DNA from: Candidatus Thorarchaeota archaeon
Lineage (GTDB): Archaea; Asgardarchaeota; Thorarchaeia; Thorarchaeales; Thorarchaeaceae
Direction: 5' to 3'
Length of the DNA: 64,000 nucleotides
NCBI GenBank assembly: GCA_018335335.1
Contig: JAGXKG010000005.1
Span: 2,868 to 66,867 of the forward strand
The position numbers were made by a program, and so were the translations under genes. How positions within the stretch are numbered: the first letter of the stretch is position 1; each line of letters begins with the position of its first letter. Positions 3,716 through 63,137 of the stretch are shown here, in pieces. The notes beneath the pieces were generated by a model. It worked only from the letters and a program-made list of their open reading frames with translations, was not told the origin of the DNA and made no database searches.

Positions 3716-4593
3716 AAGGACCAAGCCAGGAGAGACCCCGAAAAATCGGTTGTGAACAGCCGCTCAGTGGCAGGACACCATTCTACAGAACTGACTCCAC
3801 TCCAGAGTTTTGCCTGTTTCAGCTTTTTCTCTCTGTCCAACGACCATAATCTGATTGTGCGATCCGAGCTGGATGACACCATCCGGGTATCAGAGAGAAG
3901 AGTGAAATCGGTTATGGGGTCAGTGTGGCCCTCAAGAGTAAACGAAGTGGAAGGATCCTCAACAGGAAATACCCTGATGTCGCCAGTGTGAAAACCAAGA
4001 ATCACCCGGGTATCATCAGGAGTTGTCCCAAGACAACGAATCCGTTTCTTGTCCTCCCGAAGTGTAGAGAGAAGGTCGTACTCCTTCAAATCCCAGATAC
4101 GACAGCTGCCATTCCACGAGACACTCAAAAGCTGGGAATCCCCATCAGCAAAATGGAGACCAGAGACATTCAAATCGTCGGTCTGCATATTGCGTATGCA
4201 CTTCATGTGTTCTACTGAGAAGATCTTCACTTCGCCATCTCTGCCGCCAGCTGCACCTTTGTTTTCGTTATCTGCAATTGCCAGAGATTTGACCTCAGTG
4301 TGATGTTTGAGCATCTTCGGCTCCTTCTTACCTTTCTTGAGAGACCAGCGACGAGTTGTACCGTCCCAGGAACTGGAGAGGACGTGTTTGCCTTTTTTGA
4401 GAAAACGTACCTTGGAGACAATATCTTCATGACCCTTCAGTATCTTCAAAACAGTGCCCTCTTCTAGGTCAATAAGTAGAATTGGGCCCTCAGTAGTACC
4501 GCACGCAGCTCGTTTCCCGTCATGATCAACTGAAAGGCAGGTCAATGGAACTGCATCAGCTGGTTCCGGCTGATAAATGAGCTGCTTGTCCAA
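3712..4593 (-). CDS. WD40-repeat protein
   Basis: Repeated GH.D.V..V.F...G....S.S.DGT.R.W motifs (about 7 blades), e.g. GHEDIVSKVRF...SSSWDGTTRRWSL and GHTDPITDF...SSSSDRTIRLWSL. Confidence 0.85.
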   Translation of the reverse strand: MDKQLIYQPEPADAVPLTCLSVDHDGKRAACGTTEGPILLIDLEEGTVLKILKGHEDIVSKVRFLKKGKHVLSSSWDGTTRRWSLKKGKKEPKMLKHHTEVKSLAIADNENKGAAGGRDGEVKIFSVEHMKCIRNMQTDDLNVSGLHFADGDSQLLSVSWNGSCRIWDLKEYDLLSTLREDKKRIRCLGTTPDDTRVILGFHTGDIRVFPVEDPSTSFTLEGHTDPITDFTLLSDTRMVSSSSDRTIRLWSLDREKKLKQAKLWSGVSSVEWCPATERLFTTDFSGSLLAWSF

Positions 4594-4654
4594 TGCTTTG
4601 CACCATCTTTGGTTTGATATACGTCATATCAATAGGACTTCCGGTCTTAAAGCC

Positions 4655-5686
4655 TTAAGGTTCGTTTCTGCGCGTATACCAGAAATAGCTCATACCCACA
4701 ACAACAAAACCTGTAGCAACGAGTCCAATCTGGAGAAAGGGGAAAGCGTCAAGCTCAAAGATGGCATTGGAAGCCAAATCCTCGACGAGGAACACTTCCA
4801 TAACCTCACCGACAATCGCCAAGCTTTCAGCACTACATTTGTCAGGCGTATCCTCAAGAGTATGCCAATAATCCGGAAACGGAGCATGTTCGATGATATC
4901 GAGTGCTGGAATACCAGCATCGAGGAACGGGCGATGATCATCCAGTATTCTTGCTCCTACTGTCGGTAAGAAGGTGTCATTCCTGCCCATAGATTCGGCA
5001 CGTTCCCAGACTGCATTCTGCAGAGTGTCTGTGGAGGTGACTTCTTTTTCCAAGCGCAGCTCCTTATCGCCAACCATATCGAGAAGAATCATCGCCGAAA
5101 TCTGGCCTTTCCTTGTATCTGATAATGAATCAACGAAGTATGTTGAACCAACAATCCAATCCCAGCCATTGATGTCACCCGAGTCTTCGGCATCGAAGAA
5201 GACCAGCTCGATTCCTTGCTTGACTTCATCTGGTAGGACACATGCAAGCTCAAGAAGCACAGCAACACCGCTTGCACCGTCGTTTGCACCCAGTATGGGT
5301 TCTGATCGATTTTCTGGATGAGAATCCTTGTCTGCTCTTGGGCGGGTATCATAATGGGCTCCGAGGATGAATGAGGGAGTATGATTGCCGGGATAGGTAG
5401 CACGAATGTTCGAACAAAAGACATCCAGATATGTGAAATTCTGAAATACTACGTTCCAGCCGTAGTCATCTAAAGCCTCTGCCATATATGCCCTGCACGC
5501 ATTCAAATTCTCTGACCCTGGTGGGCGCGGACCAAAGTCACATTGCTCGACCAGATGGGTATATGCACGTGGCCCATCGAACACCGGTGTGTGAGCAGCA
5601 TCAACACCCGGACCGCTACTAAGAAAGAAGCATACGATGGCAATGAGTGCCCACGTGGCATGCTTGGAAGACATGAAGGATATCAC
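4655..5686 (-). CDS. M28-family metallopeptidase / glutaminyl-cyclase-like protein, secreted and C-terminally membrane-anchored
   Basis: LGAHYDTRPRADKD, GANDGASGVAVLLELA and VFFDAEDSG metal-ligand motifs. There is an N-terminal signal-like hydrophobic stretch and a C-terminal TM segment. Confidence 0.75.
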   Translation of the reverse strand: MISFMSSKHATWALIAIVCFFLSSGPGVDAAHTPVFDGPRAYTHLVEQCDFGPRPPGSENLNACRAYMAEALDDYGWNVVFQNFTYLDVFCSNIRATYPGNHTPSFILGAHYDTRPRADKDSHPENRSEPILGANDGASGVAVLLELACVLPDEVKQGIELVFFDAEDSGDINGWDWIVGSTYFVDSLSDTRKGQISAMILLDMVGDKELRLEKEVTSTDTLQNAVWERAESMGRNDTFLPTVGARILDDHRPFLDAGIPALDIIEHAPFPDYWHTLEDTPDKCSAESLAIVGEVMEVFLVEDLASNAIFELDAFPFLQIGLVATGFVVVGMSYFWYTRRNEP

Positions 5687-5746
5687 TACGGCATAACCTA
5701 AGAAGGTTTGGCAGTGGGCGTAAAGATGAAAGAAGCATACAGTAAC

Positions 5747-6415
5747 CTAGGTGGTACTACAGGAATCTCCACCAGTTTCCGGCCGCAACCCAAGTCGGCG
5801 CATGAGCTTGCCACCAGGGACTTGTTCTTCCGCTGCCGGCTCACCAGATTTATCCACTTTGACTGGTCTCCTTCGGACTTCTTCAAAGCCGTATGCCATC
5901 ACCAGCATCTTTGATGGATGGTTCTCCTCGAAAATTTCACAGTATATTTCCTCAATTCCTGCTTCAATGAAATATTCAGAGGCCCGTTGAATCATCGCTG
6001 TTGCAACACCCCGGCGGCGACGTTCAGGTAACACGCCTATCCCGGTGATTTCACCATAGACCCCACGGTCATCTTCTTCCACAAAACAGGCAATGAACCC
6101 CGATAGCTCACCCCAGAGCTCAGCCACGAAGATACCCTCTGTGTCGAGCTTCTCTGCTTCAGCTGTTGTTAAGGGACAGAAGGGGTCAGGAGAGGCTAGA
6201 AAACAACGATTGTAGAGGGCAACGAATTCCTCGATTTCGGTTTCCCTCAATTGTCGTACGTCTATGTAGCTTGGAATACTCTTGTCTTCCCACCAATCAC
6301 GAGCGAGTCTCAAGGCCTCCTCTGCGTCAGCCTTCATAATCAGATAGTGGCTGACGTTTGATTCAGACTCTTCCTGTGATGGCATCGTTGGTCTACCCTC
6401 TTCCGATTGATTCAA
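5747..6415 (-). CDS. GNAT-family N-acetyltransferase
   Basis: Acetyl-CoA motif A: GIGVLPERRRRGVATAMI. Confidence 0.75.
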   Translation of the reverse strand: MNQSEEGRPTMPSQEESESNVSHYLIMKADAEEALRLARDWWEDKSIPSYIDVRQLRETEIEEFVALYNRCFLASPDPFCPLTTAEAEKLDTEGIFVAELWGELSGFIACFVEEDDRGVYGEITGIGVLPERRRRGVATAMIQRASEYFIEAGIEEIYCEIFEENHPSKMLVMAYGFEEVRRRPVKVDKSGEPAAEEQVPGGKLMRRLGLRPETGGDSCSTT

Positions 6416-9813: not shown

Positions 9814-10730
9814 TGGAATTTGGGCTAGCAGTGAATATTCGAGAGCCGATTGAGGAGATACGAGCCATTGTCCAAACATGTATCAACAGCGACATCACCC
9901 AAGTATGGGTAACCGACTATCCTGCCACCCGGTATTCACCGATTGTGGCCGCTGCATTAGCCAAAGACATACGTAACATGCGGTTTGGTATAGGATTGTT
10001 GAGTCCACTCCTTCACCCCGTCAATCAAATCAAAAGAACAATCAAATCTCTCATTTCCCGATATGGAGAGCGGTTTGATATCCTGATTGGACCAGGGGAC
10101 AGGACTGCACTTGCAAGGATTGGAGTTGACTATGGACATATTGATACGCTCGTGAGTCGCCTTGTTGACGATGCAATTGAAATCAAGAGATACATTTCCG
10201 AAAGGGGCTTCGACAGTAGAGTTTTCTTGGCAGCACAGGGTTCCAAAATGATATCTGAATCGAAGAAGACAGACGGGGTACTTCTGAATTACACTTCGGT
10301 TGATCAAACTGAGTGGGCGCAAAAACAACTCGGGAATGTCACGTCGGAATTCATTGTCAGTGTCGTTCCGCCCACATTCATATCCCAGACTGAGAAGTGC
10401 GATTCCTCTTTTGAAATCAAGCGGAGTGCCGCAATGGTCATTCTTGGACTGAACCAATCGGTAATGAACGGGTTATCAGTTGATGAAAGTATCTCAAATG
10501 CCAAAGAATTGCACAAAGAAAAGGGGTACATTGACAGACAAGTGATAGACGCGATAAGTGATCAAGCGCTACAAGAATTCTCAATTTGTACAACAGAAAA
10601 AGAGTTGATTAAGTACTTGGAGAAGATGAAAGCCATCGGTACAGACATGGTTGTATTTGGTCCTCCCGCCGGTAAACAAAAGGAGACTGTTGAGAAGCTT
10701 GTATCTGCAGTGGGCAAAATGAGTACATAA
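9813..10730 (+). CDS. LLM-class oxidoreductase paralogue
   Basis: The GTG start overlaps the upstream stop (TAGTG) and follows GGAGGGAGG. VEFGLAVN..., QVWVTDY, and a C-terminal ELIKYLEKMKAIGTDMVVFGP typical of LLM enzymes. Confidence 0.65.
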   Translation: MEFGLAVNIREPIEEIRAIVQTCINSDITQVWVTDYPATRYSPIVAAALAKDIRNMRFGIGLLSPLLHPVNQIKRTIKSLISRYGERFDILIGPGDRTALARIGVDYGHIDTLVSRLVDDAIEIKRYISERGFDSRVFLAAQGSKMISESKKTDGVLLNYTSVDQTEWAQKQLGNVTSEFIVSVVPPTFISQTEKCDSSFEIKRSAAMVILGLNQSVMNGLSVDESISNAKELHKEKGYIDRQVIDAISDQALQEFSICTTEKELIKYLEKMKAIGTDMVVFGPPAGKQKETVEKLVSAVGKMST

Positions 10731-50751: not shown

Positions 50752-50901
50752 ACCAAAAATATAACACGGGCTGGCAATAACCAGCTCGTACACAAAGACA
50801 GCGAATTCAATCTGATTATATACTAGGATGAGATTTCCGTTTCCTTAGAGGGGTGTTCTATATTGGATGACCATGGAGCGATACGAAAGAGGATACTTGG
50901 A

Positions 50902-50954
50902 GATCTTAGAAAGCATCGTTCATCGAGGTCTACATATACATATGTAGATATATA
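50902..50954. repeat. Repeat R1, copy a: ghost of the vapB promoter plus first codons
   Basis: 44/53 identical to 51999..52051, including the core ATATACATATGTAGATATATA and an ATG.TTTCTAAGA start (minus strand). Confidence 0.7.
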
Positions 50955-51000
50955 TCACTCGTTTTAGAGCGAATAAAAATTCAAGAGTAGGCAAGTTTTA

Positions 51001-51020
51001 CAAAAATCCTAAAAAATCCG
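51001..51020 (-). terminator. Oligo-T terminator candidate (minus strand GGATTTTTTAGGATTTTTG)
   Basis: The A6 and A5 runs on the plus strand give T6 and T5 on the minus strand, directly 3' of the structured region. Confidence 0.4.
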
Positions 51021-51265
51021 AGTGGAAGAGTGTAAAATATCTGTAAGATTTCCTGCAAGTGCTACTGTGACCGAGAGTGGTAGGACTTTATTAGGCCCAG
51101 TACGGAACCCTGGTCTGATAGGACTAGGCAAGTGGGCTAGTAATCCGTCATGACGCACGCGGCCGAAAGCTGTGAGGTGGACGCGTTCCACTAAGCAGAA
51201 GTCCTCACTCTCCACACAAGGGCTTCATCAACCCCCGGAGAATCCGAGTAGTCAAACGGTTCTTC
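51010..51265 (-). ncRNA. Unassigned structured RNA candidate
   Basis: Locally GC-rich and non-coding. Bounded by a TATA-like box (rc of 51289-51297) and T-runs. A 7+7-bp closing helix pairs GAGAGTG-GT-AGGACTT (51073-51088) with AAGTCCTCACTCTC (51199-51212). Internal hairpins include ACTAG/CTAGT and GTGGA/TCCAC. Confidence 0.35.
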
Positions 51266-51311
51266 AACTCGCCAGTGTAATCATGTGCAAAATATAGAGG
51301 ATGTTCAACAG
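51246..51311. repeat. Repeat R2, copy a
   Basis: About 77% identical over ~66 bp to 61141..61207. The core is TGCAAAATATAGAGGRTGYTCAACAG (24/26). Confidence 0.7.
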
Positions 51312-51359
51312 CTTGAACATAAGGCACATTCCATGGCTAATGCAACTCTTATGGTAGAT

Positions 51360-51767
51360 TCAGTAGGATTCGACAGAAACACTTGAAATTCGCTCAAAAT
51401 GCTGAACATTGCGAGTAAGTACACGCTTGATTCCCTTTGACAACGCAGTTCCAGCAATCATTACATCACGGCTGCCAATGGGAGTTCCCTTACTCAGGAG
51501 CTGGGCAAGAATCTTAGCTGACTCAAGCGACGCAGCTCTCTCGAATGGAAGGACTTCGACTCTGGCTAAAATCTGCTCCAACTCTTCGGTGCGTCTCTGG
51601 ATCTTGTCTCGTGAAGACCTACAGATTCTATAGAGCCCGGTGTAGAGTTCGAATGTGTTGATTTCCGAGGTGTACAGAGGCTCCTCTTCTGCGCTGTCAA
51701 GCCATTCAATTGCTGCACCATCTTTTCGAAGAACATCAACCAAGAAAGTCGTATCCAAGAATATCAA
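51360..51767 (-). CDS. vapC: PIN-domain toxin VapC
   Basis: MIFLDTTFLVD, the acidic PIN residues (D5, E.., D..) and a 4-nt overlap with vapB. Confidence 0.9.
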   Translation of the reverse strand: MIFLDTTFLVDVLRKDGAAIEWLDSAEEEPLYTSEINTFELYTGLYRICRSSRDKIQRRTEELEQILARVEVLPFERAASLESAKILAQLLSKGTPIGSRDVMIAGTALSKGIKRVLTRNVQHFERISSVSVESY

Positions 51768-52012
51768 GACAAATCAACTCGCTCCAAATCAAATCCTTCG
51801 CCAATCTTTTCCAGAGTCTCTTCGAGCTTCCGAGCTTCAGCATCAGTCAGATCTGACCAACCTTCCGATGTCTTGGCCCACATTCGAAGTGATGTTGTGG
51901 TCTTTCCTCTGGCGAGCCGAGCTATAGTATCACCGAAACTTTCGCCTGGTAACTTCATTTTCTTGAGGAGGTTATACACATCTTCAGTAACAGATATGGT
52001 CTTAGAAACCAT
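51764..52012 (-). CDS. vapB: VapB-type antitoxin (archaeal small-antitoxin family, DUF217-like from memory)
   Basis: MVSKTISVTEDVYNLLKKMKLPGESFGDTIARL, translationally coupled to vapC. Confidence 0.8.
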   Translation of the reverse strand: MVSKTISVTEDVYNLLKKMKLPGESFGDTIARLARGKTTTSLRMWAKTSEGWSDLTDAEARKLEETLEKIGEGFDLERVDLS

Positions 52013-52051
52013 TGTTTATCGTGATTCATATATACATATGTAGATATATAA
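51999..52051. repeat. Repeat R1, copy b: functional vapB promoter and 5' end
   Basis: See copy a. It contains a TATA-like TTATATAT ~40 nt upstream of the vapB ATG and the palindrome TACATATGTA. Confidence 0.7.
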
Positions 52052-52087
52052 TTTTGTTGAGGGGTTGATTCCGAGGGGGCGGTTCAG

Positions 52088-52324
52088 CTACTCGGTATCG
52101 AAGATAGACCAAGCCGCTTCCTCCTCTTTCCAAAATGTGTCCATTGCACTTGATAACTTTTCAACCGATTCATTGGAAATACATCCGACGAAAGCATCAA
52201 GCGACCGTCTACTTGTCAGTCTGATGATAACCGGACTGAAGCTCTCGCTAGCCTTCTTTTCGTTCTTTAGAAGCTCATACGCGTCTTCCGAGAGTGTGAT
52301 GGTCTTGTACCCCATAGTCTTCAC
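52088..52324 (-). CDS. Orphan VapB-type antitoxin paralogue
   Basis: MGYKTITLSEDAYELLKNEKKASESFSPVIIRL aligns with VapB. No toxin gene follows. Confidence 0.7.
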   Translation of the reverse strand: MKTMGYKTITLSEDAYELLKNEKKASESFSPVIIRLTSRRSLDAFVGCISNESVEKLSSAMDTFWKEEEAAWSIFDTE

Positions 52325-52484
52325 ATTCTGAGTGTCTGTATAATGGTTTTCAACTTGTTTCCCAACAGAGTAACAACACTTTGATTGGAAATAGATGAGT
52401 CATCAAGCAGTAGCAAATAGTAACATCAAAGCCTTCATTCATTTTGTTGAGATAGCAGCGATTCTGCTCATTTCGAATCTTCTT

Positions 52485-52661
52485 TTACCTGTTCTCCTTC
52501 AAACCTTTCATCTCCTTCTGTTCGTCCAGAGTGAGTGTTCCGGACCCTGCAAGGTCATCAATCCCTCCCTGGTCCTTTATGAGCCGGAGAAGAAGTTCAT
52601 CGAAGCTTTCATCATCTCGCTTCAAACGTTTGAGTGTCTTATAGGCGTCTTCTGTCTTGAC
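52485..52661 (-). pseudogene. Degenerate VapB-type antitoxin paralogue with no start codon
   Basis: My own translation of the minus strand gives ..ARVKTEDAYKTLKRLKRDDESFDELLLRLIKDQ...LTLDEQKEMKGLKENR*. This is the same family, but the N-terminal KTI.V residues and any ATG/GTG/TTG are missing. It is in frame behind the stop of 52707..52904. Confidence 0.4.
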
Positions 52662-52706
52662 TCTAGCAAATCCTGCCGTACTACAGCAGTCTCGGATAAA
52701 AGAGCC

Positions 52707-52904
52707 TTATACTTCGTCAAGGGGGGTAAACTCCTCTTCGGAAAGAATTCGATTCTGCCGCTCGGCAAACTCGACCTTTTCAGCCATGGCCAGAAGACGG
52801 CGAACCAGCTCATCATAGGTTTCCCCCTTTCTGCCAAATTGCTTCAACAAATCGCGGGTGCTCTTGGAGAGAGGAATTGTGATTGTGTCGCCCATCTCTA
52901 TCAT
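52707..52904 (-). CDS. Orphan antitoxin-like protein, distant member of the same family
   Basis: MGDTITIPLSKSTRDLLKQFGRKGETYDELVRRLL shares the T-I-x-hydrophobic...LLK...GE[ST][FY].[DE].[IV].RL pattern. Confidence 0.55.
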   Translation of the reverse strand: MIEMGDTITIPLSKSTRDLLKQFGRKGETYDELVRRLLAMAEKVEFAERQNRILSEEEFTPLDEV

Positions 52905-52949
52905 AGCTTATAATATTGATAATTACTTATAATTTCCTCCGAAGGTGTC

Positions 52950-53165
52950 CTAGAGGTTCACCTTCTCAGCTATCTCAATCACGGAAATGTTCTCATCTTG
53001 AGTTAGAATCTCTATAATCCGCAGTCGTGATGGGTCTGATAGCGTTTGAAACACCTTCGAAAGCTCTTCTATATCTGATTCAGTTAGGTTGATGGGTTCT
53101 ATGACTTTCCTCCTCCACGGTGTTATATGTGAATATTTGAAAACATATTCGAAAAATTTAGCCAT
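52950..53165 (-). pseudogene. Truncated ArsR-family regulator (N-terminal 71 aa only)
   Basis: LSDPSRLRIIEILTQDENISVIEIAEKVNL then a stop. The recognition helix (S.S.VSHHL) and the wing are absent. Confidence 0.55.
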
Positions 53166-53449: not shown

Positions 53450-53995
53450 GTGGAGTACATGGCTGAAGAAGCAACAGAAAGGAAAGGACCTGCATCGCGT
53501 GGAAAACCTGCTATTGTAGATCCTGAGTTCAAACATCAGGTGTTGAGAGAACATGGTGGCGAAAGCCTGAGGCTGTGTTTCCAGTGTGGGACGTGTACTG
53601 CAGGATGTATTATCACAGAGTATAGTGATGAATACCAAGGTCCTCGAAAAATCATACGAATGGTTCAGCTCGGCTTAGTTGAAGACCTTCTCTCCAGCCC
53701 CCAGCTATGGGCCTGTGCTAATTGTCATGAATGCACGGAGGTCTGCCCACAAGGGGTCAGTCCTGCCAATATATTAAACGCGGTTCGACGCATAGCTGCA
53801 AAGGAAGAGCGTTTTCCTCCTGCCTACAGGCAATTTGTTGAAACAATTCTTGAAGATGGATGGCTTTTGGAGGACTCTTACTCAGATTTTATTGAAGATG
53901 ATCGGGATGACTTGGATCTTGAAACAGAGTTGAATTGGAACAAGAAATTCGTAGAACATGTTAAGAAGAAATACTTCCCCGAGGTAGAAGAATAA
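53450..53995 (+). CDS. hdrC: Heterodisulfide reductase subunit C-like 4Fe-4S protein
   Basis: CFQCGTCTAGC and CANCHECTEVCPQG cluster motifs with HdrC-type spacing. The start may be the internal MAEE. Confidence 0.8.
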   Translation: MEYMAEEATERKGPASRGKPAIVDPEFKHQVLREHGGESLRLCFQCGTCTAGCIITEYSDEYQGPRKIIRMVQLGLVEDLLSSPQLWACANCHECTEVCPQGVSPANILNAVRRIAAKEERFPPAYRQFVETILEDGWLLEDSYSDFIEDDRDDLDLETELNWNKKFVEHVKKKYFPEVEE

Positions 53996-54120
53996 TGGAT
54001 GAAATTTTGCTCTATCGTGGGTATACGACACAAGTTCGACTTCCTAATTATGAAGCCTCTACTATCGCAGGTTTGAAGAAACTGGAGAGAAGGCAAGAAG
54101 AGGGCGTCTGGAGGGTTTAG
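53995..54120 (+). pseudogene. hdrB remnant (41 codons)
   Basis: The ATG overlaps the hdrC stop (TAATG). MDEILLYRGYTTQVRLPNYEASTIAGLKKLE matches the HdrB N-terminus (y.lflGC.ip.R.P.yEas.r.v..kLg) with GC changed to GY. A stop follows after 41 codons and no CCG domains are present. Confidence 0.45.
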
Positions 54121-54123
54121 ACT

Positions 54124-54645
54124 ATGTGGAATTACTACGCAGTCTGGAGGGTCTTAGAGGAATTGCTTGGCAATCTCAAGGAAAGAGGTGTTGAGATACC
54201 TGCAGGCTTTTTGACGAAACTGAAGGCCGCTCACGGGAATATTAACATCTTGAAAGCAGACCCAACCTATGAAGACACCATGAAGAAGGTAGAGGAGCAA
54301 TTGAACAACCTAGAGGGACATCTAGTCTATCTTGCTGAAAACAGAGTGGGTCCAGAATATGCGGACAAATGGATAGCCAGAATCAAACAGGCCAGGGAGT
54401 CTGAGCCTGAGGTGTCACGGGCAAAACCGTTTTCTCCGGGGGTTCCACGAGCAGACTATTGGATTCGCCTTACGATAGGAGAGGTAATTAAACTAGAGGA
54501 GATAAAGGAAATGGCTTCAGACTTGGGCCTCTCAATCAAAGCGGAAGACGCTGATACAGTCATAGTCCACGGTAAAGAGGCAAAGGTAAAGAGGTTGGTC
54601 AAGAACATGACTACGAAGATGAGAGAAGAGAGAAACAGAGCCTAG
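54124..54645 (+). CDS. Hypothetical protein (archaeal DUF-like, Cys-free)
   Basis: ORF only. It occupies the position where hdrB would be expected. Confidence 0.5.
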   Translation: MWNYYAVWRVLEELLGNLKERGVEIPAGFLTKLKAAHGNINILKADPTYEDTMKKVEEQLNNLEGHLVYLAENRVGPEYADKWIARIKQARESEPEVSRAKPFSPGVPRADYWIRLTIGEVIKLEEIKEMASDLGLSIKAEDADTVIVHGKEAKVKRLVKNMTTKMREERNRA

Positions 54646-54662
54646 GCTCTGTCATATTTGTT

Positions 54663-55154
54663 CTATTTATCGGCCTCTGACGCTGCATCTGCCAAAATTC
54701 GTGCGGCTGTTGCAGATATTCGAGACTTCCGTGCTTTAGTTTCACGGCTCTGCAATGAGAGAGCCTCTACTGGACAGACATCTATACATTTTGGCTCGCC
54801 GTCACAAAGGTCGCAGACGATAGCAATTTTGTCAGGACCCACTGTGATTGCTCCAAAATCGCACGCTTCAACGCACCAACCACATCCATTGCACTTGTCT
54901 TCATCGACGATGATATGACCGTCTTCCTCACTCTGTTGCAAAGCATCTCTCGGGCAAGCGATGACACATGGGGCGTCTTCGCACATTCTGCAAGCTATCG
55001 CGAGATTACCGCTCGGATAGACACGAAGCGCTCTAATCCGAGACCTGATGGGATTGAAGACGCCATCTTTCTCAAGGGAACATGCATATTCACAGACAGT
55101 ACAACCAGTGCAGAGGTCCGGGTCACAACTCACAAACTTGTGTATTTTCACCAT
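54663..55154 (-). CDS. Four-cluster 4Fe-4S ferredoxin (AOR partner, DmsB/HybA-like)
   Basis: CTGCTVCEYAC, CRMCEDAPCVIACP, CNGCGWCVEAC and CDLCDGEPKCIDVCP. GGAGG lies 7 nt before the ATG at 55154. Confidence 0.85.
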   Translation of the reverse strand: MVKIHKFVSCDPDLCTGCTVCEYACSLEKDGVFNPIRSRIRALRVYPSGNLAIACRMCEDAPCVIACPRDALQQSEEDGHIIVDEDKCNGCGWCVEACDFGAITVGPDKIAIVCDLCDGEPKCIDVCPVEALSLQSRETKARKSRISATAARILADAASEADK

Positions 55155-55167
55155 TCTGTTACCTCCA

Positions 55168-57081
55168 TCAATCCCTCTTCGTCTTCTTCGTGGTCTTTTT
55201 CTTCCCACTCTTCTTCTTCGAATCTGTGTTCTTCAAGTCCTCAAGGTACCCGGCATAACTCTCGAGTCCCAACTCCTTGAGCTTGGCGTCCGATGGGATA
55301 CCCTCTTTTGACCACCCTCGTGTTTCATAGTAGTCATCAAGAAGAAGGTCTAGTTCCTCTTGAGTGACGAGTGAACCCTTTGCAACTCCCGACTTGATTG
55401 GGTCAGTCATGCATCGGATGGGGAGTGTGTCCTTCTCACGACCAATGCCCTCCCGGAGATTGTAGATCTTGCCCAAGTTGCTGATTCTCTCACCACAGCG
55501 TCGCATCTCCTCTGCGGTCATTGGAATCCCAGTGGCCAGAGTGTACATTTTGGCATAACTCTCGTAGTCCCATATCCTTCTGGAGAACTTGCAAATAATG
55601 AGCGAGTCCATGACGCTATAGAGGTCCTCTCCATCTATGACAAGTTGACCCCTTCCTTTCTCAGCCTTGAAACGGTCGACCTGCCCCCCCAAGTCGGGCC
55701 CGTAGGCACCATGTCTTTGATGGTCGGCCCCTCTGCGTGAAACAGCATAACCTAGAGCACAGGTTTTGAGGCCCCGCACATCATAACCCGTCATTTCAAC
55801 GCCTTTGATATGCATAGCGAACTTCTCTGAACCTTTTCCTAGCTTAGCAGCTGCACGTTCCACACCTTCAGCCAAAAGGTCTCCTATATCTTCTCTGAGG
55901 GCAATCTTCTCTACCATGTCACACATACCTTCGGCGTTACCGAACTCAAGCTCTATACCACCTGTGTCCTCTTTGGTGATGATTCCCTTCTCGTATGCTT
56001 CCATAGCAAATGCCACCACAACACCTGTTGATAGAGCATCTGTACCGTATAAGTCACAGAGCTGTACAGCCCGAACGATTGCGTCCGGTCTGTCAACACC
56101 TGTACACGAACCAAAAGCATAGCTTGGCTCATATTCGACACGACCGATTGCACCTTTGAATGGGCCTTCTCTTACCACAGCAACATGCTCGCAGCGCATT
56201 CCACAGCTATCGCAGGCCTGTATTTTCTCAACATACATTTCATTGGAAGCTTCTCCACTTATCTTGTCTGCCTTCTCGAATACTGCATCTTGCCAGTTTC
56301 TCGTGGGCATAGCAGCCTGCTTGTTTAGTGTCAGAACGTTGGCCGCAGTACCAAGATTTCGGTACTTCTCTGTTTCCGGTCCCTTTGTCTTCTCATAGAT
56401 TTCAAGTGCCATCTCTTTGAAGCCATCAACATCAGCCACTTCTACATCATTGAAGCCTCTCACTGCGACAGCCTTGAGGTTCTTGGATCCCATCACCGCG
56501 CCCATTCCTGTGCGCCCGGCTGCTCTGAGCCGGTCATTTATGATAGCTGAAAAGCGGACAAGTTTCTCTCCTGCTGGACCGATCGATGCGACTCTCACCC
56601 CAGGATCTCCCAAGTCCGACTTGATTATGTCCTCCGTGTCCCAGTTATTCTTACCCCACAAATGGCTGGCATCGAGGATCTGGACGCTATCATCCTCCAA
56701 ATAGAGATATGACGGCCGCTCAGCCTTTCCTGTCACCACGACGATGTCATATCCAGCTCTCCTTAGTTCCGAGCCAAAGAATCCCGTTGAATATGACTCA
56801 CCGAGTCCCTGTGATTGGGGCGATTTTGCAGCGACACCCCACTTGCTGGCGCTCCCGGACACCATCATACCACAAAAGGTGCCACACGAGTATACTATAG
56901 GATTCTCGGGATCAAAAGCATCTGTGTTAGGCCGCTGATAATCAGTGATCATTTTGATACCGAATCCGGCACCACCGAGGAACTTTCTAGCCATCTCCTC
57001 CCCTAGCGGTTCGGTCTTTGTTTTTCCAGTGCGCAGGTTGATGTACAAGATATTGTTTGCATATCCTTTCACGTTATACAC
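55168..57081 (-). CDS. aor: Tungsten-type aldehyde:ferredoxin oxidoreductase
   Basis: N-terminal NILYINL.TGK, the AOR cluster and pterin motifs (CDSCGMRCEH, GTDALSTG, DHQRHGAY) and length typical of AOR, plus a Lys-rich tail. Confidence 0.95.
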   Translation of the reverse strand: MYNVKGYANNILYINLRTGKTKTEPLGEEMARKFLGGAGFGIKMITDYQRPNTDAFDPENPIVYSCGTFCGMMVSGSASKWGVAAKSPQSQGLGESYSTGFFGSELRRAGYDIVVVTGKAERPSYLYLEDDSVQILDASHLWGKNNWDTEDIIKSDLGDPGVRVASIGPAGEKLVRFSAIINDRLRAAGRTGMGAVMGSKNLKAVAVRGFNDVEVADVDGFKEMALEIYEKTKGPETEKYRNLGTAANVLTLNKQAAMPTRNWQDAVFEKADKISGEASNEMYVEKIQACDSCGMRCEHVAVVREGPFKGAIGRVEYEPSYAFGSCTGVDRPDAIVRAVQLCDLYGTDALSTGVVVAFAMEAYEKGIITKEDTGGIELEFGNAEGMCDMVEKIALREDIGDLLAEGVERAAAKLGKGSEKFAMHIKGVEMTGYDVRGLKTCALGYAVSRRGADHQRHGAYGPDLGGQVDRFKAEKGRGQLVIDGEDLYSVMDSLIICKFSRRIWDYESYAKMYTLATGIPMTAEEMRRCGERISNLGKIYNLREGIGREKDTLPIRCMTDPIKSGVAKGSLVTQEELDLLLDDYYETRGWSKEGIPSDAKLKELGLESYAGYLEDLKNTDSKKKSGKKKTTKKTKRD

Positions 57082-57406
57082 TCTCAGCCAGTTCCAAATG
57101 CATATTTTCGTGTGAGCGGCGAATAAAGCTGTGATAAACGTATCGACGATTATATGTTCACGACCAGATGGATTAACGTGGGACAGTCGAGAAGAGGACC
57201 GCTTAATTCGATAGAATCTGGGAAAAAGATACGGATACGTGCAGCTGGCAGGATCTCTTCTGAATGAAGAAACACAAAGGCGGTCTCTCGAAGCATGAGA
57301 TTCTCACCAAGTTTTTTATTTCATTCCAAAAGAGATTTAATATATACGATATTGCGAAGCGCATCTTAGTCACAATATAGCAAGCTAACAGAGGAATGAT
57401 AGGTAT

Positions 57407-58273
57407 TTGCCACTACGACTGCAGAAGACAGAAACTGACAATGCTTTGGTCATCGAACGCGGGCTCTACACAAAACGCTTCTTGCTGACTGTAAATCGGG
57501 AAAAGTGTAGAGGATGTGGCGTTTGTGAAAGGGTCTGTCATACAGACGCGATTGCTCTCGTCGACAGAGAGAAGACAATAGTAGACGGAGAAGAGGTTGC
57601 GCAAAGAGCGATTCTTGATATTGACGAGCATCTCTGCGATCACTGCGGCATGTGTGAAGCAATGTGTCCGTTTTGTGCAATCGAACATACAATCAATGGT
57701 GAGCCAATCGTGTGTGTCTACGAAACAGAGAGTTTCCCTCAGTATGTTCGCGACATCAGGGTCAAGGAAGAGAAGATAAATCCGTATTTGGAAAGAGCAG
57801 ACGAGTTGTGTCCGTTGAATCTCATTTCGGTAGAAGATGGAAAACTAGCCATCGATGAGAAATCATGTCCCTGTTGCAGACATTGTGAAGACAGGACAGA
57901 AGGCGCGATTCTTGTGCGTCCAATCTTCTTGGGCTCCATCATCATCAATCAGGAGAAGTGTCCTGAAGGCTGCAAGAGCTGCCTAGATGTGTGTCCCGTA
58001 GAGGCTCTGGAATTAAGCGAGGATGGGAATGTCTATCCCCTAGGAAGATACTGTGTTTACTGCGAGGCATGCGTTCAAGTCTGCCCAAAGCCGGAGGAGG
58101 CGCTGATTGTTACACGGACATCAGTTCGACATACCCCCATCAAGTCTGGGGCATGGAACAAAGCGTTAGACAAACTGGCGACCTCCGATGCCTGCGATCG
58201 TGAACTTCGGACGAAAAGAACAAGTAAAGTTGCCGAGGCCATGAAACGACGAGACATGGGTGGAGGAAAGTGA
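57407..58273 (+). CDS. Polyferredoxin-like protein (4-5 [4Fe-4S] motifs)
   Basis: CRGCGVCERVC, CDHCGMCEAMCP, CPCCRHCE, CPEGCKSCLDVCP and CVYCEACVQVCP. The TTG start is uncertain. Confidence 0.8.
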   Translation: MPLRLQKTETDNALVIERGLYTKRFLLTVNREKCRGCGVCERVCHTDAIALVDREKTIVDGEEVAQRAILDIDEHLCDHCGMCEAMCPFCAIEHTINGEPIVCVYETESFPQYVRDIRVKEEKINPYLERADELCPLNLISVEDGKLAIDEKSCPCCRHCEDRTEGAILVRPIFLGSIIINQEKCPEGCKSCLDVCPVEALELSEDGNVYPLGRYCVYCEACVQVCPKPEEALIVTRTSVRHTPIKSGAWNKALDKLATSDACDRELRTKRTSKVAEAMKRRDMGGGK

Positions 58274-58309
58274 TCAATATTGACTGACACGGAGACCGAA
58301 CAGAATCAT

Positions 58310-60796
58310 ATGACACGCGTAGCGGAAGAACCCCGAATTGGTGTCTTCATCTGCCACTGCGGTTCGAACATAGCTGGCACTCTCGACATTGACGAGTTAG
58401 AAGAATATGCCAAAACGCTTGACTCGGTTGTCCACGTCAAACAGAACCGATACACATGTGCAGATCCCGGTCAGAAGGAGATTCGTGAAGCCATTAAGGA
58501 ACACAAACTCAACAAGGTGGTGGTTGCCGCATGTTCACCCCGAATGCACGAACCCACCTTTAGGGTCACGGTCTCGGACGCAGGAATGAACCCGTTCAAC
58601 TTCATCATGGCCAATATCAGAGAACACTGCTCATGGTGTCATGAGGAGACCGAGGACTCTTTGCAAAAGGCGAAAGAAATCATCAAGATGGCGGTTGTCA
58701 AGGCTGCATTGACCGTGCCTCTGCAGAAGTTCGAAGTGCCTGTGACGGATAAAGCCATGGTCATCGGAGGGGGCGTTTCCGGAATCCATGCCGCTCTTGA
58801 CCTCGCCAATATGGGATATAAGACGTATCTTGTCGAACGTGATGAGAGTATTGGCGGCCACATGGCTCAGCTCGACAAGACCTTCCCCACACTGGACTGT
58901 TCAATCTGTATCGAGGGGCCGAAGATGGTCGAGGCGGGACGACACGCCAATATCGAAATCATCTCTTTTGCGGATGTCGTACATGTGGATGGGTACGTTG
59001 GAAACTTCGAGGTGAGAATCCAAAAGAATCCCCGATACGTCATCCAAGATAATTGTACAGGCTGCGGCGAGTGTTCAGATGTCTGCCCAGTAGAGTATCC
59101 TAATGCGTGGGAACAGAATCTGGGAACGCGAAAGGCAATTTCCGTCCCATTCCCACAGGCTGTCCCTCTCGTGTACACTATAAATCGCGACCACTGTATC
59201 GAGTGTTACAAGTGTGTTGATGTCTGTGGCGAACGGCAGGCTATCGACTTCGAACAGGAGCCTGAAGAGATTGAAGTGGAGGTGGGAACTATCACAGTGG
59301 CTACAGGCTATCACTCCATGTACGAACCAGTCAGGGGAGGAGAGTCTGAGGCGGCTCAAGAAGGGTATTATGGTTACGGGAAATTCGAGAATGTCATAAC
59401 CGCCCTTGAAGTAGAGCGACTCATCTGTGCGGGCGGACCCACAGGAGGAGAAGTCATTCGTAGGTCTGATGGGAAACACCCTCATCGTGTAGGCTTCATC
59501 CAATGTGTGGGCTCTCGAGATGTCAATAAGTACGAGTATTGCTCCAATTTCTGCTGCATGTACACTCTGAAGAATGCCATTCTCATCAATGAGCACGAGC
59601 CTGATACTGAGATATTCATCTGGTATATCGACATGAGGACTCCTGGAAAGGGATATGAGGACTTCTACACCAGAGCAAGAGAAGCCGGCTTCACGTTCAT
59701 CAAGGGCAGACCACACAAGGTCATCGAGGACCCCGAAACCAAGAACCTGATTGTACGTTCTGAAGATGTGCTCCTCGGGAAAGAGGTAGAGGTAGAGGTT
59801 GACCTGCTAATCCTAGCTACGGCTGGTGAGCCAAGCTTTGGAACTGGGGAGCTCGGCGCGAAACTCCATATCACCAGAAGCGCCGACGGATTCTTCATGG
59901 AGGCACATCCGAAGCTCAAACCCCTCGATACAGCTGTGGATGGAATCACCCTGTCCGGTGCCTGTCAGGGTCTCAAGGACATACCTCACTCAGTATCAGC
60001 TGGCAGCGGTGCAGCGTCGCGTGCTGCGACCATCCTGTCGAAAGATACCGTTGAGATTGAGCCCATTGTAGCTGTGGTTGACCCTGACAAGTGCATGAAT
60101 GTGGATCGAAACTGTGGCATCTGTGTGGACAAATGCCCCTATGTTGCCATCACAGCAAAAGACGGTAAGGCTGCCGTTATCAACGTAGCCAATTGTCATG
60201 GCTGCGGTACATGTGTTGCGTCTTGTCCCCACGATGCCATTGAGCAGATGCACTTCACTGACCCTATGATTTTCTCGCAAATCAGAGCAGCACTGGAGGA
60301 CAAGCCCGAGGAAAAGATTCTGGTCTTTGCCTGCAATTGGTGCTGTTATGGTGGGTCTGATCTTGCAGGAACAAGCAGGTTCACCTATCCTCCCAATTCA
60401 CGCATCATCAGAGTGATGTGTTCCGGCAGGGTGGACACGGACTTTGTCGCAGAGGCCTTCAGACTTGGTGCTGGAGCAGTCATGGTGGGTGCATGCCACA
60501 GACCCACAGACTGTCACTACATCAGCGGAAATATTATCGCATATGAGAGGTTCCAACGCTACCATAAGGTGCTTGAAAGAGCAGGAATCAGCACCGAGAG
60601 ATTCCTATGGAAGGAAATCTCCGCAGCTGAGGGACTTGTCTTTGCAAGAACAATGGAAGAGCTGAATCAGAGGCTTGAGGACATCGGTATCGACAGGATC
60701 AAGGAAGAGAATGAAAAGGCGAGGAATAGAATCTCAGCACCTCTAAAGAGGAAGGGGCTCATTCCAAAAAGCGAGAAGACAGAACAAGAAGAGTAA
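58310..60796 (+). CDS. hdrA: HdrA-like flavoprotein fused to a C-terminal MvhD domain
   Basis: IGVFICHCGSNIAG, the FAD motif VIGGGVSGIHAAL, LDCSICIEGPKM, an inserted 2x[4Fe-4S] domain, CVGSRD...CSNFCCMY, and a C-terminal ferredoxin domain. The MvhD signature follows: FACNWCCYGGSDLAG...RVMCSGRVD...GACH..DCHY. Confidence 0.9.
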   Translation: MTRVAEEPRIGVFICHCGSNIAGTLDIDELEEYAKTLDSVVHVKQNRYTCADPGQKEIREAIKEHKLNKVVVAACSPRMHEPTFRVTVSDAGMNPFNFIMANIREHCSWCHEETEDSLQKAKEIIKMAVVKAALTVPLQKFEVPVTDKAMVIGGGVSGIHAALDLANMGYKTYLVERDESIGGHMAQLDKTFPTLDCSICIEGPKMVEAGRHANIEIISFADVVHVDGYVGNFEVRIQKNPRYVIQDNCTGCGECSDVCPVEYPNAWEQNLGTRKAISVPFPQAVPLVYTINRDHCIECYKCVDVCGERQAIDFEQEPEEIEVEVGTITVATGYHSMYEPVRGGESEAAQEGYYGYGKFENVITALEVERLICAGGPTGGEVIRRSDGKHPHRVGFIQCVGSRDVNKYEYCSNFCCMYTLKNAILINEHEPDTEIFIWYIDMRTPGKGYEDFYTRAREAGFTFIKGRPHKVIEDPETKNLIVRSEDVLLGKEVEVEVDLLILATAGEPSFGTGELGAKLHITRSADGFFMEAHPKLKPLDTAVDGITLSGACQGLKDIPHSVSAGSGAASRAATILSKDTVEIEPIVAVVDPDKCMNVDRNCGICVDKCPYVAITAKDGKAAVINVANCHGCGTCVASCPHDAIEQMHFTDPMIFSQIRAALEDKPEEKILVFACNWCCYGGSDLAGTSRFTYPPNSRIIRVMCSGRVDTDFVAEAFRLGAGAVMVGACHRPTDCHYISGNIIAYERFQRYHKVLERAGISTERFLWKEISAAEGLVFARTMEELNQRLEDIGIDRIKEENEKARNRISAPLKRKGLIPKSEKTEQEE

Positions 60797-61370: not shown

Positions 61371-61769
61371 TCATAATTGTTCTGAAGAGTCTGAAACTGC
61401 ATGCTTTCTTAGCCATGCGGCGCTAGTATCGATTTCAACCTCTCCTTTTGCTATTGAAATACACATATCTTCAGCATCATCAATGTCTATCATTAAATAA
61501 TGACCATTGAAAGCAAGAAAAAGCGCAGTAGTCAGCCATCCCGTTCTTTTATTACCATCAACAAATGGATGTTTGTCAATTATGCAATGCAACAGGGCCG
61601 CAGCCTTTTTCCAAATAGAGGGATATGGATCAAATCCGTAGTATTGCTTGACTGGGATTTCCAAACAATCAACCAAGTCTGATTTACATAAGATTCCGGA
61701 CTCGCCCCCGTATCGTTCCAGAGATTGTTCATGTATTCTCATTACCTGACTTATTGATAACAATCTCAA
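61371..61769 (-). CDS. doc: Fic/Doc-family toxin (death-on-curing type)
   Basis: Fic motif HPFVDGNKRTG, ~130 aa Doc-size protein. Confidence 0.9.
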   Translation of the reverse strand: MRLLSISQVMRIHEQSLERYGGESGILCKSDLVDCLEIPVKQYYGFDPYPSIWKKAAALLHCIIDKHPFVDGNKRTGWLTTALFLAFNGHYLMIDIDDAEDMCISIAKGEVEIDTSAAWLRKHAVSDSSEQL

Positions 61770-61795
61770 ATAGAACTGCCCTCTCTAATGGACTA

Positions 61796-62065
61796 CTAAC
61801 CAGCTAATCTTCTCAGCAACTCATCATATTTTTCAAATGCCTTCTCAAGGGCTTCTTCAAACTCATCATCAGGAATTTGTGAATCTATTCTACGAGGGGT
61901 CGTAGTCATTATTGGGACTCTAATAGAGACCTGGTGATTTGAGTCAACTCCAGTTGTTTCAATTTCAGAACTCATTTCTGCTGAAGTGGAGTCCAACATC
62001 TGAGAGGCAGAGGTAAGGCCTGATGTATCATCTTCTGGATTTTCTTCAATCTCTTCATATGACAT
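61796..62065 (-). CDS. Small acidic protein, putative Doc antitoxin
   Basis: Lies 26 nt upstream of doc. It has a disordered acidic N-terminus and a C-terminal amphipathic helix (DEFEEALEKAFEKYDELLRRL). No recognisable DNA-binding fold. Confidence 0.4.
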   Translation of the reverse strand: MSYEEIEENPEDDTSGLTSASQMLDSTSAEMSSEIETTGVDSNHQVSIRVPIMTTTPRRIDSQIPDDEFEEALEKAFEKYDELLRRLAG

Positions 62066-62105
62066 TTAATGGCCACCTCTTATGTTATTATTAGGTGATT
62101 TTCTA

Positions 62106-63137
62106 CTAAATCTTTTCATTCTGGAACCATCCTTCCTCTAGCACTCGTTCTTGATACCCAATGGTAGGTTGAGGAATGGCAGGAGGTTTTATTTCGACAC
62201 GATTTATTTCCTTTCTTGTTCTAAATACATGGGTCAATCCAGTGGTTTCAATAATAGCTCTATTCAATTCAGCAACAACTGAGTCGCCCTCATTAAGTTC
62301 CGATTCTGGATGGTAGGGTTGATTCAATAACAAAGCTTGAACATACAAATTAAAAAGATTCATCACCAGTTGTTCTGTCGCCAAATCTGCCTCTTCGATG
62401 TTGAGTTCAAGCGTTTCAATTGCTTCTCGGCGCCCCATCAAATAGTTGTGTGAGAATCGTTCCTCCGTCAGGATCTTAACAGTTTTTTCAATTTGGTTTT
62501 CATCATCCATATGCATTGATAAAAGGGATTCTCCAAAAAAGGATATCTGCTGTCTAGATCGATATACTGACCCAAGTGCAATGGGGTGAACTTTATTCGT
62601 AAGTTCTTTGAAAACTTCCAACCTAGATTTTTCACTCTTTAGGTCGAAAGATTTTTCGGCCAAGCCAAGAAAACCCATTACGTCTTCTACCGAAATTGGA
62701 ACTTGTCGCGTGTTGCCCTTTGGAGCACCAGGGACTTGAAGTATCGGAGCAAAAGGTGTTCCAACTGATGGGTCTATAGGACTCAAAAGCCCCAATCTAG
62801 TCATAAATATGCTATCTGCACCCAAGGCGATTAGTGTCGCGCAGCTGAGAGCCTTAGAAGGGATAATAATTCTGAATTCATCAGTGAACTCCCTAATCAG
62901 ATTCACCAAAGCAAAACCAGCCATGGTGATTCCCCCGGTACTATAGAGCATCAAATCAATGCGATTCTGTTTTCCCATTTTTGTTAGATGTTTACTAAGA
63001 GGTGTTAGAATATCACTGGCAATTTTTGTTTCAGCGTTTCTTCGGTCACCCAAAATACAAACTATTAATCGAGATTTTCGAGTGTCTTCAATCTCCTCTA
63101 TTAGCCGTAACCGATTCTTCTTCAATGCTGTGGACAT
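62106..63137 (-). CDS. ClpP/SppA-fold serine protease of the SDH (serine dehydrogenase proteinase) family
   Basis: IDLMLYSTGGITMAG...IIIPSKALSCATLIALGADSIFM..LGLLSPIDPS matches the family core (lhT.GG...vp..A.SAgTliALgAdeI.M...LGPiDPq). Confidence 0.75.
   Translation of the reverse strand: MSTALKKNRLRLIEEIEDTRKSRLIVCILGDRRNAETKIASDILTPLSKHLTKMGKQNRIDLMLYSTGGITMAGFALVNLIREFTDEFRIIIPSKALSCATLIALGADSIFMTRLGLLSPIDPSVGTPFAPILQVPGAPKGNTRQVPISVEDVMGFLGLAEKSFDLKSEKSRLEVFKELTNKVHPIALGSVYRSRQQISFFGESLLSMHMDDENQIEKTVKILTEERFSHNYLMGRREAIETLELNIEEADLATEQLVMNLFNLYVQALLLNQPYHPESELNEGDSVVAELNRAIIETTGLTHVFRTRKEINRVEIKPPAIPQPTIGYQERVLEEGWFQNEKI

Follow-up and report, generated by a model that had tools for sequence, protein, structure and literature searches.

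A 64,000-nucleotide stretch of contig JAGXKG010000005.1 (C113 in our numbering; this whole stretch is the window) from a Candidatus Thorarchaeota archaeon carries, between positions 53450 and 60796, genes for an aldehyde:ferredoxin oxidoreductase (AOR) and a ferredoxin-type small subunit, back-to-back with genes for a polyferredoxin and a fusion of HdrA to MvhD, and with further heterodisulfide reductase (Hdr) genes alongside. The question that this arrangement raises is whether the two halves belong to a single enzyme and, if so, in which direction electrons would pass through it. The host assembly is a metagenome-assembled genome (MAG) of 2.94 Mb that is 97% complete. The window proteins were taken from a list of open reading frames (ORFs) and searched with the Pfam and NCBIfam profiles, and PDB sequence comparisons were used for the assignments. 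All seven ORFs of the region were present in the list, and they are HdrC, a relic of HdrB, a DUF2096 protein, the small and large tungsten oxidoreductase subunits WorS and WorL, an FwdF-like polyferredoxin and an HdrA-MvhD fusion of the HdrA2 type.

An earlier examination of the DNA alone (the sequence-only reading) had given ORF coordinates and a 325-bp spacer that our ORF list reproduced, and its gene identities (an hdrC-like gene, an hdrB stub, a cysteine-free ORF, a four-cluster ferredoxin, AOR, polyferredoxin and HdrA-MvhD) are borne out. It had also proposed that the AOR–ferredoxin pair is functionally coupled to polyferredoxin–HdrA/MvhD, and both conserved synteny and congruent AOR and HdrA2 phylogenies argue for such coupling. 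We put at roughly 60% the probability that the seven genes are one conserved, co-inherited module, which would encode a cytoplasmic Hdr-type flavin-based electron-bifurcating tungsten aldehyde/carboxylate oxidoreductase.

Conservation of the gene set

The window proteins were compared by tblastn with 65 loci found through HdrA2 and with 20 regions from an Asgard-wide genome search. In the Thorarchaeota, the order HdrC-(HdrB)-DUF2096-<WorS-<AOR-pFd>-HdrA2>, where pFd is the polyferredoxin, was kept in every locus with enough flanking sequence (L014-L019, L054 and G037), and the arrangement is also retained in one Bathyarchaeia subclade. In six bacterial loci, from Clostridia (Oscillospiraceae), Actinomycetota (Humimicrobiia) and Thermoflexales, the same genes are packed into compact operons that run in one direction, with no other dehydrogenase present in any of the six. 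Their gene orders are AOR-WorS-DUF2096-HdrCB(fused)-pFd-HdrA2 and MoaD-like-AOR-WorS-HdrA2-HdrC-HdrB-pFd, the fusion of HdrC with HdrB being seen in L043 and L049. The synteny of aor-fd with polyFd-hdrA/mvhD, which had been suggested as a check on the coupling, is thus preserved in all of the Thorarchaeota loci with enough flank, in the Bathyarchaeia subclade and in three bacterial phyla.

When all ORFs of 19 module loci were cross-compared, covering Thorarchaeota, Bathyarchaeia, Clostridia, Actinomycetota and Chloroflexota, the set of 6-7 genes proved to be all that the loci have in common, their flanks being unrelated. Because it is conserved across two domains, the adjacency of AOR and Hdr genes is far beyond chance. 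It is also restricted to one HdrA2 subclade: when Asgard HdrA-MvhD fusions at a greater distance (47-56% identity) were examined for a linked AOR, none had this one beside it, and HdrCB or Mvh genes adjoined them instead. Among ~45 sampled genomes of the window's own family, orthologues of at least 78% identity were found in only ~8.

Probable co-inheritance of AOR and HdrA2

We also scanned metagenomes from the AOR side, which gave 61 loci unbiased as to Hdr, and built quick maximum-likelihood trees for HdrA2 and for 70 AORs. In the scan, a WorS gene follows every AOR that is at least 53% identical to that of the window. The window AOR falls within a 55-member clade (SH-aLRT 100), apart from the ~10 AOR paralogues encoded elsewhere in its genome, which are at most 38% identical to it. 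Subclades A (bacterial) and B (Thorarchaeota, Bathyarchaeia and Clostridia) of this clade are linked to an HdrA2 module in 22 of 22 cases, and in subclade C other Hdr genes lie within 10 kb in 10 of the 12 loci with long flanks. The latter are varied. In L082 the order is MoaD<-|AOR-WorS->|<- protease, MvhA, MvhG, HdrB, HdrC, MvhD, a 1011-aa HdrA and a DUF2096-like gene; in L101, AOR, WorS and HdrA/MvhD all run in one direction.

The AOR-linked sequences come together in the HdrA2 tree as a clade of 20 (SH-aLRT 98) whose internal order matches that of AOR subclade B, and the bacterial group branches separately, as it does in the AOR tree. This congruence argues that both proteins have been inherited, and have moved between domains, as one unit.

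A number of observations weigh against a single module. Loci that were collected by way of HdrA2 will tend to contain HdrA2, and only the AOR-centred set is free of this bias. HdrB, the presumed high-potential exit in the relatives, is missing in this genome. In the HdrA2 tree, a sister Bathyarchaeia clade has pFd-HdrA2(-HdrCB) without AOR, and two of the subclade C AOR loci have no Hdr gene within 10 kb; each half can therefore exist alone. Finally, the archaeal AOR and HdrA2 units are divergent. The intergenic region between them (57082..57406, 325 bp) contains two TATA-like boxes that, in an alignment of five Thorarchaeota loci, are separately conserved, one toward the AOR gene (57131-57146) and the other toward the polyferredoxin gene (57328-57347), and that may be the units' own promoters. 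With divergent orientation and separate boxes, co-transcription is impossible in the archaea.

The last three of these points, together with the fact that HdrA2 of Methanosarcina acetivorans works without an AOR, would suit two independent enzymes that share a neighbourhood: a Class II ferredoxin-dependent AOR-WorS, and a Methanosarcina-type ferredoxin:disulfide oxidoreductase made of pFd-HdrA2(HdrCB). Their sole connection would be the soluble ferredoxin pool or common regulation, with no complex and no bifurcation at the tungsten site. Independence sits poorly, however, with bacterial versions that are compact co-directional operons of these genes only, and with AOR and HdrA2 topologies that agree and a whole set that occurs in both domains. 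Moreover, the AOR clade pairs with differing types of Hdr module, which is hard to explain as a chance neighbourhood. We therefore regard two separate enzymes as unlikely, and favour the single module.

Components of the module

The large subunit, WorL (55168..57081, minus strand), has the AFOR_N and AFOR_C domains (PF02730, E=1.7e-71; PF01314, E=1.2e-127) and is of the AOR sensu stricto type. Its scores against PDB chains were 412 bits for 9mqx_D, 392 for 1aor, 372 for AorB (8c0z) and 216 for BamB (4z3w_A), and the alignment shows that the equivalents of Cys288, Cys291, Cys295, Cys494, Glu313 and His448 of 1AOR are kept. With both domains, the cysteine ligands and the catalytic Glu and His, it is assigned to the AOR/WOR family. 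Tungsten is the predicted metal, as tungsten content cannot be read from sequence. Membership of the BamB (class II benzoyl-CoA reductase) group was considered and rejected, given 216 bits to BamB against 392-412 to AORs.

The gene next to it (54663..55154, minus strand) encodes a WorS/AorA-type small subunit of 163 aa with four [4Fe-4S] motifs (16 Cys), whose best PDB matches are 6x6u_B, 9mqx_E and 8c0z_C. A WorL with an adjacent four-cluster WorS is the pattern of WOR Class II, and the pair is classed there on its predicted proteins. The BfuABC-type WorA/B/C of Class IV were sought without success: no Bfu/NuoEF-type domain was found in the seven module proteins, and no WorA/B/C-type gene is conserved in any of the 19 related loci. 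WorS continues for ~28 residues past its last cluster motif (SRETKARKSRISATAARILADAASEADK; 54663-54750). In A. mobile and A. aromaticum, it is the C-terminal helix of WorS/AorA that decides nanowire assembly and docking.

On the other side of the spacer, the HdrA-MvhD fusion (58310..60796, plus strand; the ORF is open from 58280) joins a bifurcating FAD subunit to a [2Fe-2S] adaptor domain. It scored 1014.5 bits with the HdrA2 model NF040770, just below the model cut-off of 1100. Residues 6-664 match HdrA of M. wolfeii (5odc_A) with 821 bits and residues 667-803 match MvhD (5odc_D), with PF02662 at residues 670-793. An HdrA with a C-terminal MvhD fusion is one mark of the HdrA2B2C2 subclass (type Ia), and the window protein has this domain order. 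The bacterial HdrA2 homologues in L048, L055 and L076 (~10594-10610) have an in-frame stop near codon 198; it adjoins a conserved LDCSIC motif and stands at the position of a Cys in the window HdrA2, and it is probably a selenocysteine codon.

The polyferredoxin (57407..58273, plus strand) is FwdF/FmdF-like, with 24 Cys for 4-6 clusters, a score of 127 bits with the FwdF model NF042909, and 5t5i_F (FwdF) and 7bkb_K (FmdF) as best PDB matches. It adjoins HdrA2 in all relatives.

The cysteine-free ORF (54124..54645, plus strand) had been left without an assignment. It does lack Cys, but a family could be found: it matches PF23100 (DUF2096_N) with E=2.4e-15, and it is a conserved member of the set that the sequence-only reading overlooked, present in 14 of the 18 module loci compared. 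The gene tracks Hdr, not AOR, since L022 and L061 have it beside Hdr genes but have no AOR, and in L082 (21336-21686) it stands next to a type II HdrA. An AF2 model (pLDDT 84.7) consists of a four-helix bundle and a weakly KH-like C-terminal domain, and a Foldseek comparison of this model with the PDB gave no significant fold match. Going by its distribution, the DUF2096 protein would serve the Hdr half of the module as a conserved accessory; its lack of cysteines means that it is no thiol substrate. A gene for a FAD-dependent, phytoene-desaturase-like oxidoreductase is inserted between HdrB and DUF2096 in just a single Bathyarchaeia lineage (L024 and L079), and in L024 (4010-5532) it is split into ORFs of 349 and 156 aa.

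Outside the module, toxin-antitoxin islands lie on both sides: a VapB/VapC array upstream (50845-53165) and a Doc operon downstream (61371-63137). These flanks are conserved in no relative, and they fit a mobile or recombination-prone neighbourhood.

Loss of HdrB and the chimeric HdrC

HdrC (53450..53995, plus strand; TIGR03290, 92.8 bits) has two CxxCxxCxxxC ([4Fe-4S]) motifs, at residues 43 and 89. The ATG of the next ORF overlaps its stop (TAATG at 53993-53997) and opens a pseudogene remnant of 41 codons (53995..54120, plus strand). That this stub is what remains of HdrB, as had been supposed, is confirmed by six relatives (L014, L054, L015, L016, L024 and L069) in which an intact two-CCG HdrB of 294-321 aa stands at the same position, between HdrC and DUF2096. 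In L069 the first ~85 hdrB codons are also repeated (4516-4782), ~480 bp upstream of the full gene (4995-5891), either by local duplication or as an assembly repeat.

Only ~130 bp remain at the hdrB position in the window, in L019 (TEKIR_14) and in L140 (G037, of the same genus). The remnant reads differently in the three and its start is lost in G037, so that it looks like a neutrally decaying relic. Since the same deletion is found in three independent assemblies, it is not an artefact. The loss of HdrB is derived and limited to a genus-level lineage comprising these three genomes. The first reading had described the locus as lacking a functional HdrB; as a feature of the system's design this is not supported, since the ancestral module includes HdrC-HdrB. 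The second acceptor that it could not name is, in the relatives, whatever HdrB reduces.

A simple in-place deletion of hdrB was considered and rejected, because the C-terminal half of HdrC is of a foreign or paralogous type as well. Residues 1-88 of the window HdrC are 86% identical to HdrC of L014 and 41% to an HdrC encoded on contig C164 of the same genome, whereas residues 111-181 are 51% identical to the C164 protein and 30% to that of L014 (8/27, a local match only). By these identities the window HdrC is a chimera, with an N-part orthologous to the module HdrC and a C-part of the paralogous, C164-like type. The HdrB relic is similar in this respect: its first 30 residues are identical to the N-terminus of the C164 HdrB at 15 of 30 positions, and at its other end the tail LKKLERRQEEGV is similar to LLKKLQEGGEEGI, the C-terminus of the resident HdrB. 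The simplest reading is a recombination long ago with an hdrCB of the C164-like type, in which hdrC had its 3' half exchanged and hdrB was almost entirely lost; the three MAGs of this genus have the chimeric HdrC as well as the deletion in common.

It is probable, by analogy, that an HdrB encoded elsewhere serves the module in this genome and its two congeners. Of the HdrB proteins that the genome encodes, the best reaches only 41% identity with the orthologue, and the chimeric C-terminus of HdrC may serve to bind such a paralogous HdrB. Supply in trans has a precedent in M. acetivorans, in which hdrA2 and the polyferredoxin gene MA2867 form an operon and hdrC2B2 lie elsewhere (PMC4561719).

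The other possibility is that the module of this genome is itself a decaying relic, in which the loss of HdrB broke the high-potential branch and the other genes are on their way to becoming pseudogenes. Apart from the truncation of HdrB and the chimeric HdrC, the flanking toxin-antitoxin islands could be read in this way. We computed dN/dS between two of the HdrB-less genomes (the window and L019), and obtained 0.08 for HdrA2, 0.115 for AOR, 0.205 for the polyferredoxin, 0.22 for DUF2096, 0.25 for HdrC, 0.26 for WorS and 0.54 for the HdrB relic. The values of the module genes are ~twofold higher in this pair than in the comparison with L014, as decay might predict. Nevertheless, at 0.08-0.26 the six intact genes still show purifying selection, if a little weaker than in the L014 comparison, and this applies to both halves of HdrC (0.27 and 0.23). 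In addition, each of the three independent HdrB-less MAGs has all six of these genes intact, no Cys motif or catalytic residue has been lost, and there is the M. acetivorans precedent. We therefore think decay improbable, and the module appears still to be functional in the HdrB-less genomes.

Candidate partners elsewhere in the genome

The sequence-only reading had stated that no hydrogenase, formate dehydrogenase or intact HdrB is present at the locus. This is correct for contig C113, on which a hydrogenase, a Mo/W-bisPGD enzyme and a CCG protein were looked for and none was found; we accordingly rejected the idea that a hydrogenase, formate dehydrogenase or CCG protein lies hidden in the window. 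It does not extend to the genome, which encodes ~16 CCG-domain proteins outside the window, several further Hdr clusters and three Mvh-type hydrogenase loci (on contigs C43, C162 and C164). With three Mvh hydrogenases and ~16 CCG proteins available, it is possible that an HdrB or hydrogenase partner is supplied in trans.

For the hydrogenase, this leads to a specific alternative, in which the fused MvhD docks an Mvh-type [NiFe] hydrogenase encoded elsewhere and bifurcation is driven by H2, with the AOR as the low-potential and HdrCB as the high-potential acceptor. Besides the three Mvh loci, subclade C offers support, as for example in L082, where AOR-WorS adjoins a full DUF2096-HdrA-MvhD-HdrCB-MvhGA operon. 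The genome itself has a comparable string: on contig C162 (1140-8581), paralogous genes for a MoaD-like protein, an amidohydrolase, WorS and AOR adjoin MvhD-MvhG-MvhA, all on one strand. However, all three Mvh loci come with an MvhD of their own, and a hydrogenase is conserved beside the HdrA2-type module in none of the 19 loci, the self-contained bacterial operons included. Hydrogenase docking is thus, in our estimation, a poor prospect for the module of the window.

The C162 string is a second and different association of AOR with MvhD in the genome, possibly a hydrogenase-linked AOR. On contig C25 (22136-23974), an MvhD-like gene lies directly upstream of a 675-aa Mo/W-bisPGD (FdhA-like) ORF, which suggests a third kind of MvhD-adapted module.

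Proposed direction of electron flow

Cofactor-binding motifs are present in all parts of the module and the gene set is self-contained. For handling substrates it evidently has only the tungsten site, the ferredoxin-type domains and, in relatives, the site of HdrB. We infer a physical complex of the module proteins that would couple three redox couples. WorL and WorS would be the catalytic unit with its Fe-S wire, HdrA2 would carry the bifurcating FAD, several Fe-S clusters and the fused MvhD adaptor, the FwdF-like polyferredoxin would be part of the complex, and HdrC with (ancestrally) HdrB would form the high-potential exit, with DUF2096 as an accessory. The relevant potentials are ∼-580 mV for acid/aldehyde, ∼-450 to -500 mV for ferredoxin and ∼-150 mV for known heterodisulfides.

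Our preferred wiring, to which we give somewhat less than an even chance, places the AOR at the low-potential output, with ferredoxin as donor and HdrCB as the high-potential exit. Reduced ferredoxin would feed HdrA2; the high-potential electron would leave through HdrC/HdrB to a disulfide or other acceptor, and the low-potential electron would pass by way of the polyferredoxin and WorS to the tungsten site, where a carboxylic acid would be reduced to the aldehyde. This preference has four grounds. In the cryo-EM structure of class II benzoyl-CoA reductase (BCRII), the MvhD-like BamF is the input adaptor, the CCG-type BamD is the high-potential exit, and BamBC sit on the low-potential branch of the HdrA-like BamE (bioRxiv 10.64898/2026.04.10.717634). 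The polyferredoxin is FwdF/FmdF-like, and such polyferredoxins wire HdrA to a W/Mo enzyme (7bkb). The HdrA2B2C2 of M. acetivorans takes reduced ferredoxin as its donor (PMC5296606). Lastly, a hydrogenase already fills the MvhD port in L082-type loci. The sequence-only reading had taken the AOR as the only primary dehydrogenase of the neighbourhood; under this wiring it may instead be a low-potential acceptor, working in acid reduction.

A second wiring, which we consider possible but less probable, has the AOR as input. Aldehyde oxidation would feed the FAD via WorS/MvhD, as in WorABCSL of A. mobile, and the aldehyde electrons would be split between ferredoxin and the HdrB substrate. In the closest solved WorSL, that of A. 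mobile WorABCSL (9MQX), electrons from the aldehyde enter a bifurcating plug, and the self-contained operons offer no other module to dock on MvhD. The preferred direction thus has against it that the closest characterised WorL, A. mobile WOR1, works the opposite way. The probability left after both wirings goes to there being no complex, or other chemistry.

Relation to known systems

Several known systems have parts in common with the module. The class II benzoyl-CoA reductase of Geobacter metallireducens, Bam[(BC)2DEFGHI]2, is likewise built from a tungsten subunit of the AOR family with its Fe-S subunit, a bifurcating flavoprotein of the HdrA type, an adaptor of the MvhD type and a CCG/HdrB-like high-potential exit. 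In the module, however, WorL is an aldehyde-type AOR and not BamB, WorS has four clusters where the Bam counterpart has three, and HdrA is single, canonical and fused to MvhD, unlike the fused double HdrA of Bam. There is no BamGHI (Bfu) input module here, BamGHI being absent from the bacterial operons and from all 19 compared loci. The polyferredoxin and DUF2096 are additional, and the CCG protein (HdrB) is found in the relatives only.

WorABCSL, the Class IV WOR1 of A. mobile and E. limosum (9MQX; PMC12318220), has the closest solved WorL and WorS. It resembles the module in having a WorSL unit on a bifurcating 'plug', and in linking aldehyde/acid chemistry to ferredoxin and a second carrier. 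Its plug is BfuABC (FMN, NAD+), whereas the plug here would be Hdr-type (FAD, HdrC/B, MvhD), with no WorABC genes.

The M. acetivorans HdrA2B2C2 shares the HdrA-MvhD fusion, the adjacent polyferredoxin and HdrB/C that may be encoded elsewhere, but it lacks AOR/WorS and DUF2096 and acts on the CoM-S-S-CoB of a methanogen, whereas the host here is a non-methanogenic Asgard archaeon; CoM and CoB are absent from Thorarchaeota. The Mvh/Fdh-Hdr-Fmd(Fwd) supercomplex (5odc, 7bkb) has a canonical HdrA, MvhD and an FwdF/FmdF-like polyferredoxin, and in both cases the polyferredoxin is the likely wire from HdrA to a W/Mo pterin enzyme reducing at very low potential. It differs in its terminal enzyme, formylmethanofuran dehydrogenase, and in its input, a hydrogenase or formate dehydrogenase, neither of which is in this module. 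The module is likewise distinct from MvhAGD-HdrABC, in which MvhAG, a group 3c [NiFe] hydrogenase, is encoded with Hdr, there being no MvhA/G on contig C113.

Thus, the best reading of the predicted proteins is a flavin-based bifurcating tungsten oxidoreductase with an Hdr-type, and not a Bfu-type, core and an aldehyde-type, and not a BamB-type, catalytic subunit. A more specific version, which we offer tentatively and think doubtful as a whole, is that the module corresponds, in Asgard archaea, Bathyarchaeia and bacteria, to the Hdr-Fwd supercomplex of methanogens. It would act as a carboxylic-acid reductase driven by ferredoxin and coupled to a disulfide, and the HdrB-less genus would be a natural rewiring of it. 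Bifurcation of ferredoxin electrons at HdrA2 would be paid for by reduction of the HdrB substrate, electrons would be pushed below ∼-580 mV via the FwdF-like polyferredoxin and WorS into the tungsten AOR, and in this genus the chimeric HdrC would recruit a paralogous HdrB in trans.

The pairing of AOR with HdrA2 has no published description that we found, in a literature search that was incomplete and whose silence is no proof. A 2026 classification of WORs has five classes; bifurcating Class IV consists of WorLS with BfuABC-type WorABC, plus benzoyl-CoA reductase, and Hdr is mentioned for the latter only. The 2025 structure paper (PMC12318220) divides the AOR clade into four types, of which none is linked to Hdr, and in the literature seen on HdrA2, HdrA diversity and Asgard/Bathyarchaeia metabolism there is no mention of an AOR partner.

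Implications

To our knowledge, only four families of flavin-based electron-bifurcating enzymes are known, and the coupling of tungsten AOR-family enzymes to them is known in just two forms, the Bfu-type WOR1 and the specialised benzoyl-CoA reductase. An ordinary aldehyde/acid AOR bearing an Hdr-type plug would, if confirmed, be a third form, found in Asgard archaea, Bathyarchaeia and several bacterial phyla, and it would give a function to the HdrA2-type genes of non-methanogens. The HdrB-less congeners provide a natural comparison for the role of the high-potential branch. The module would help to explain why AOR and Hdr genes have been reported to rank among those that Asgard archaea express most strongly (PMC11291895). 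It would also offer a possible route from acid to aldehyde at physiological potentials, with a bearing on fermentation balance and on biocatalytic alcohol production.

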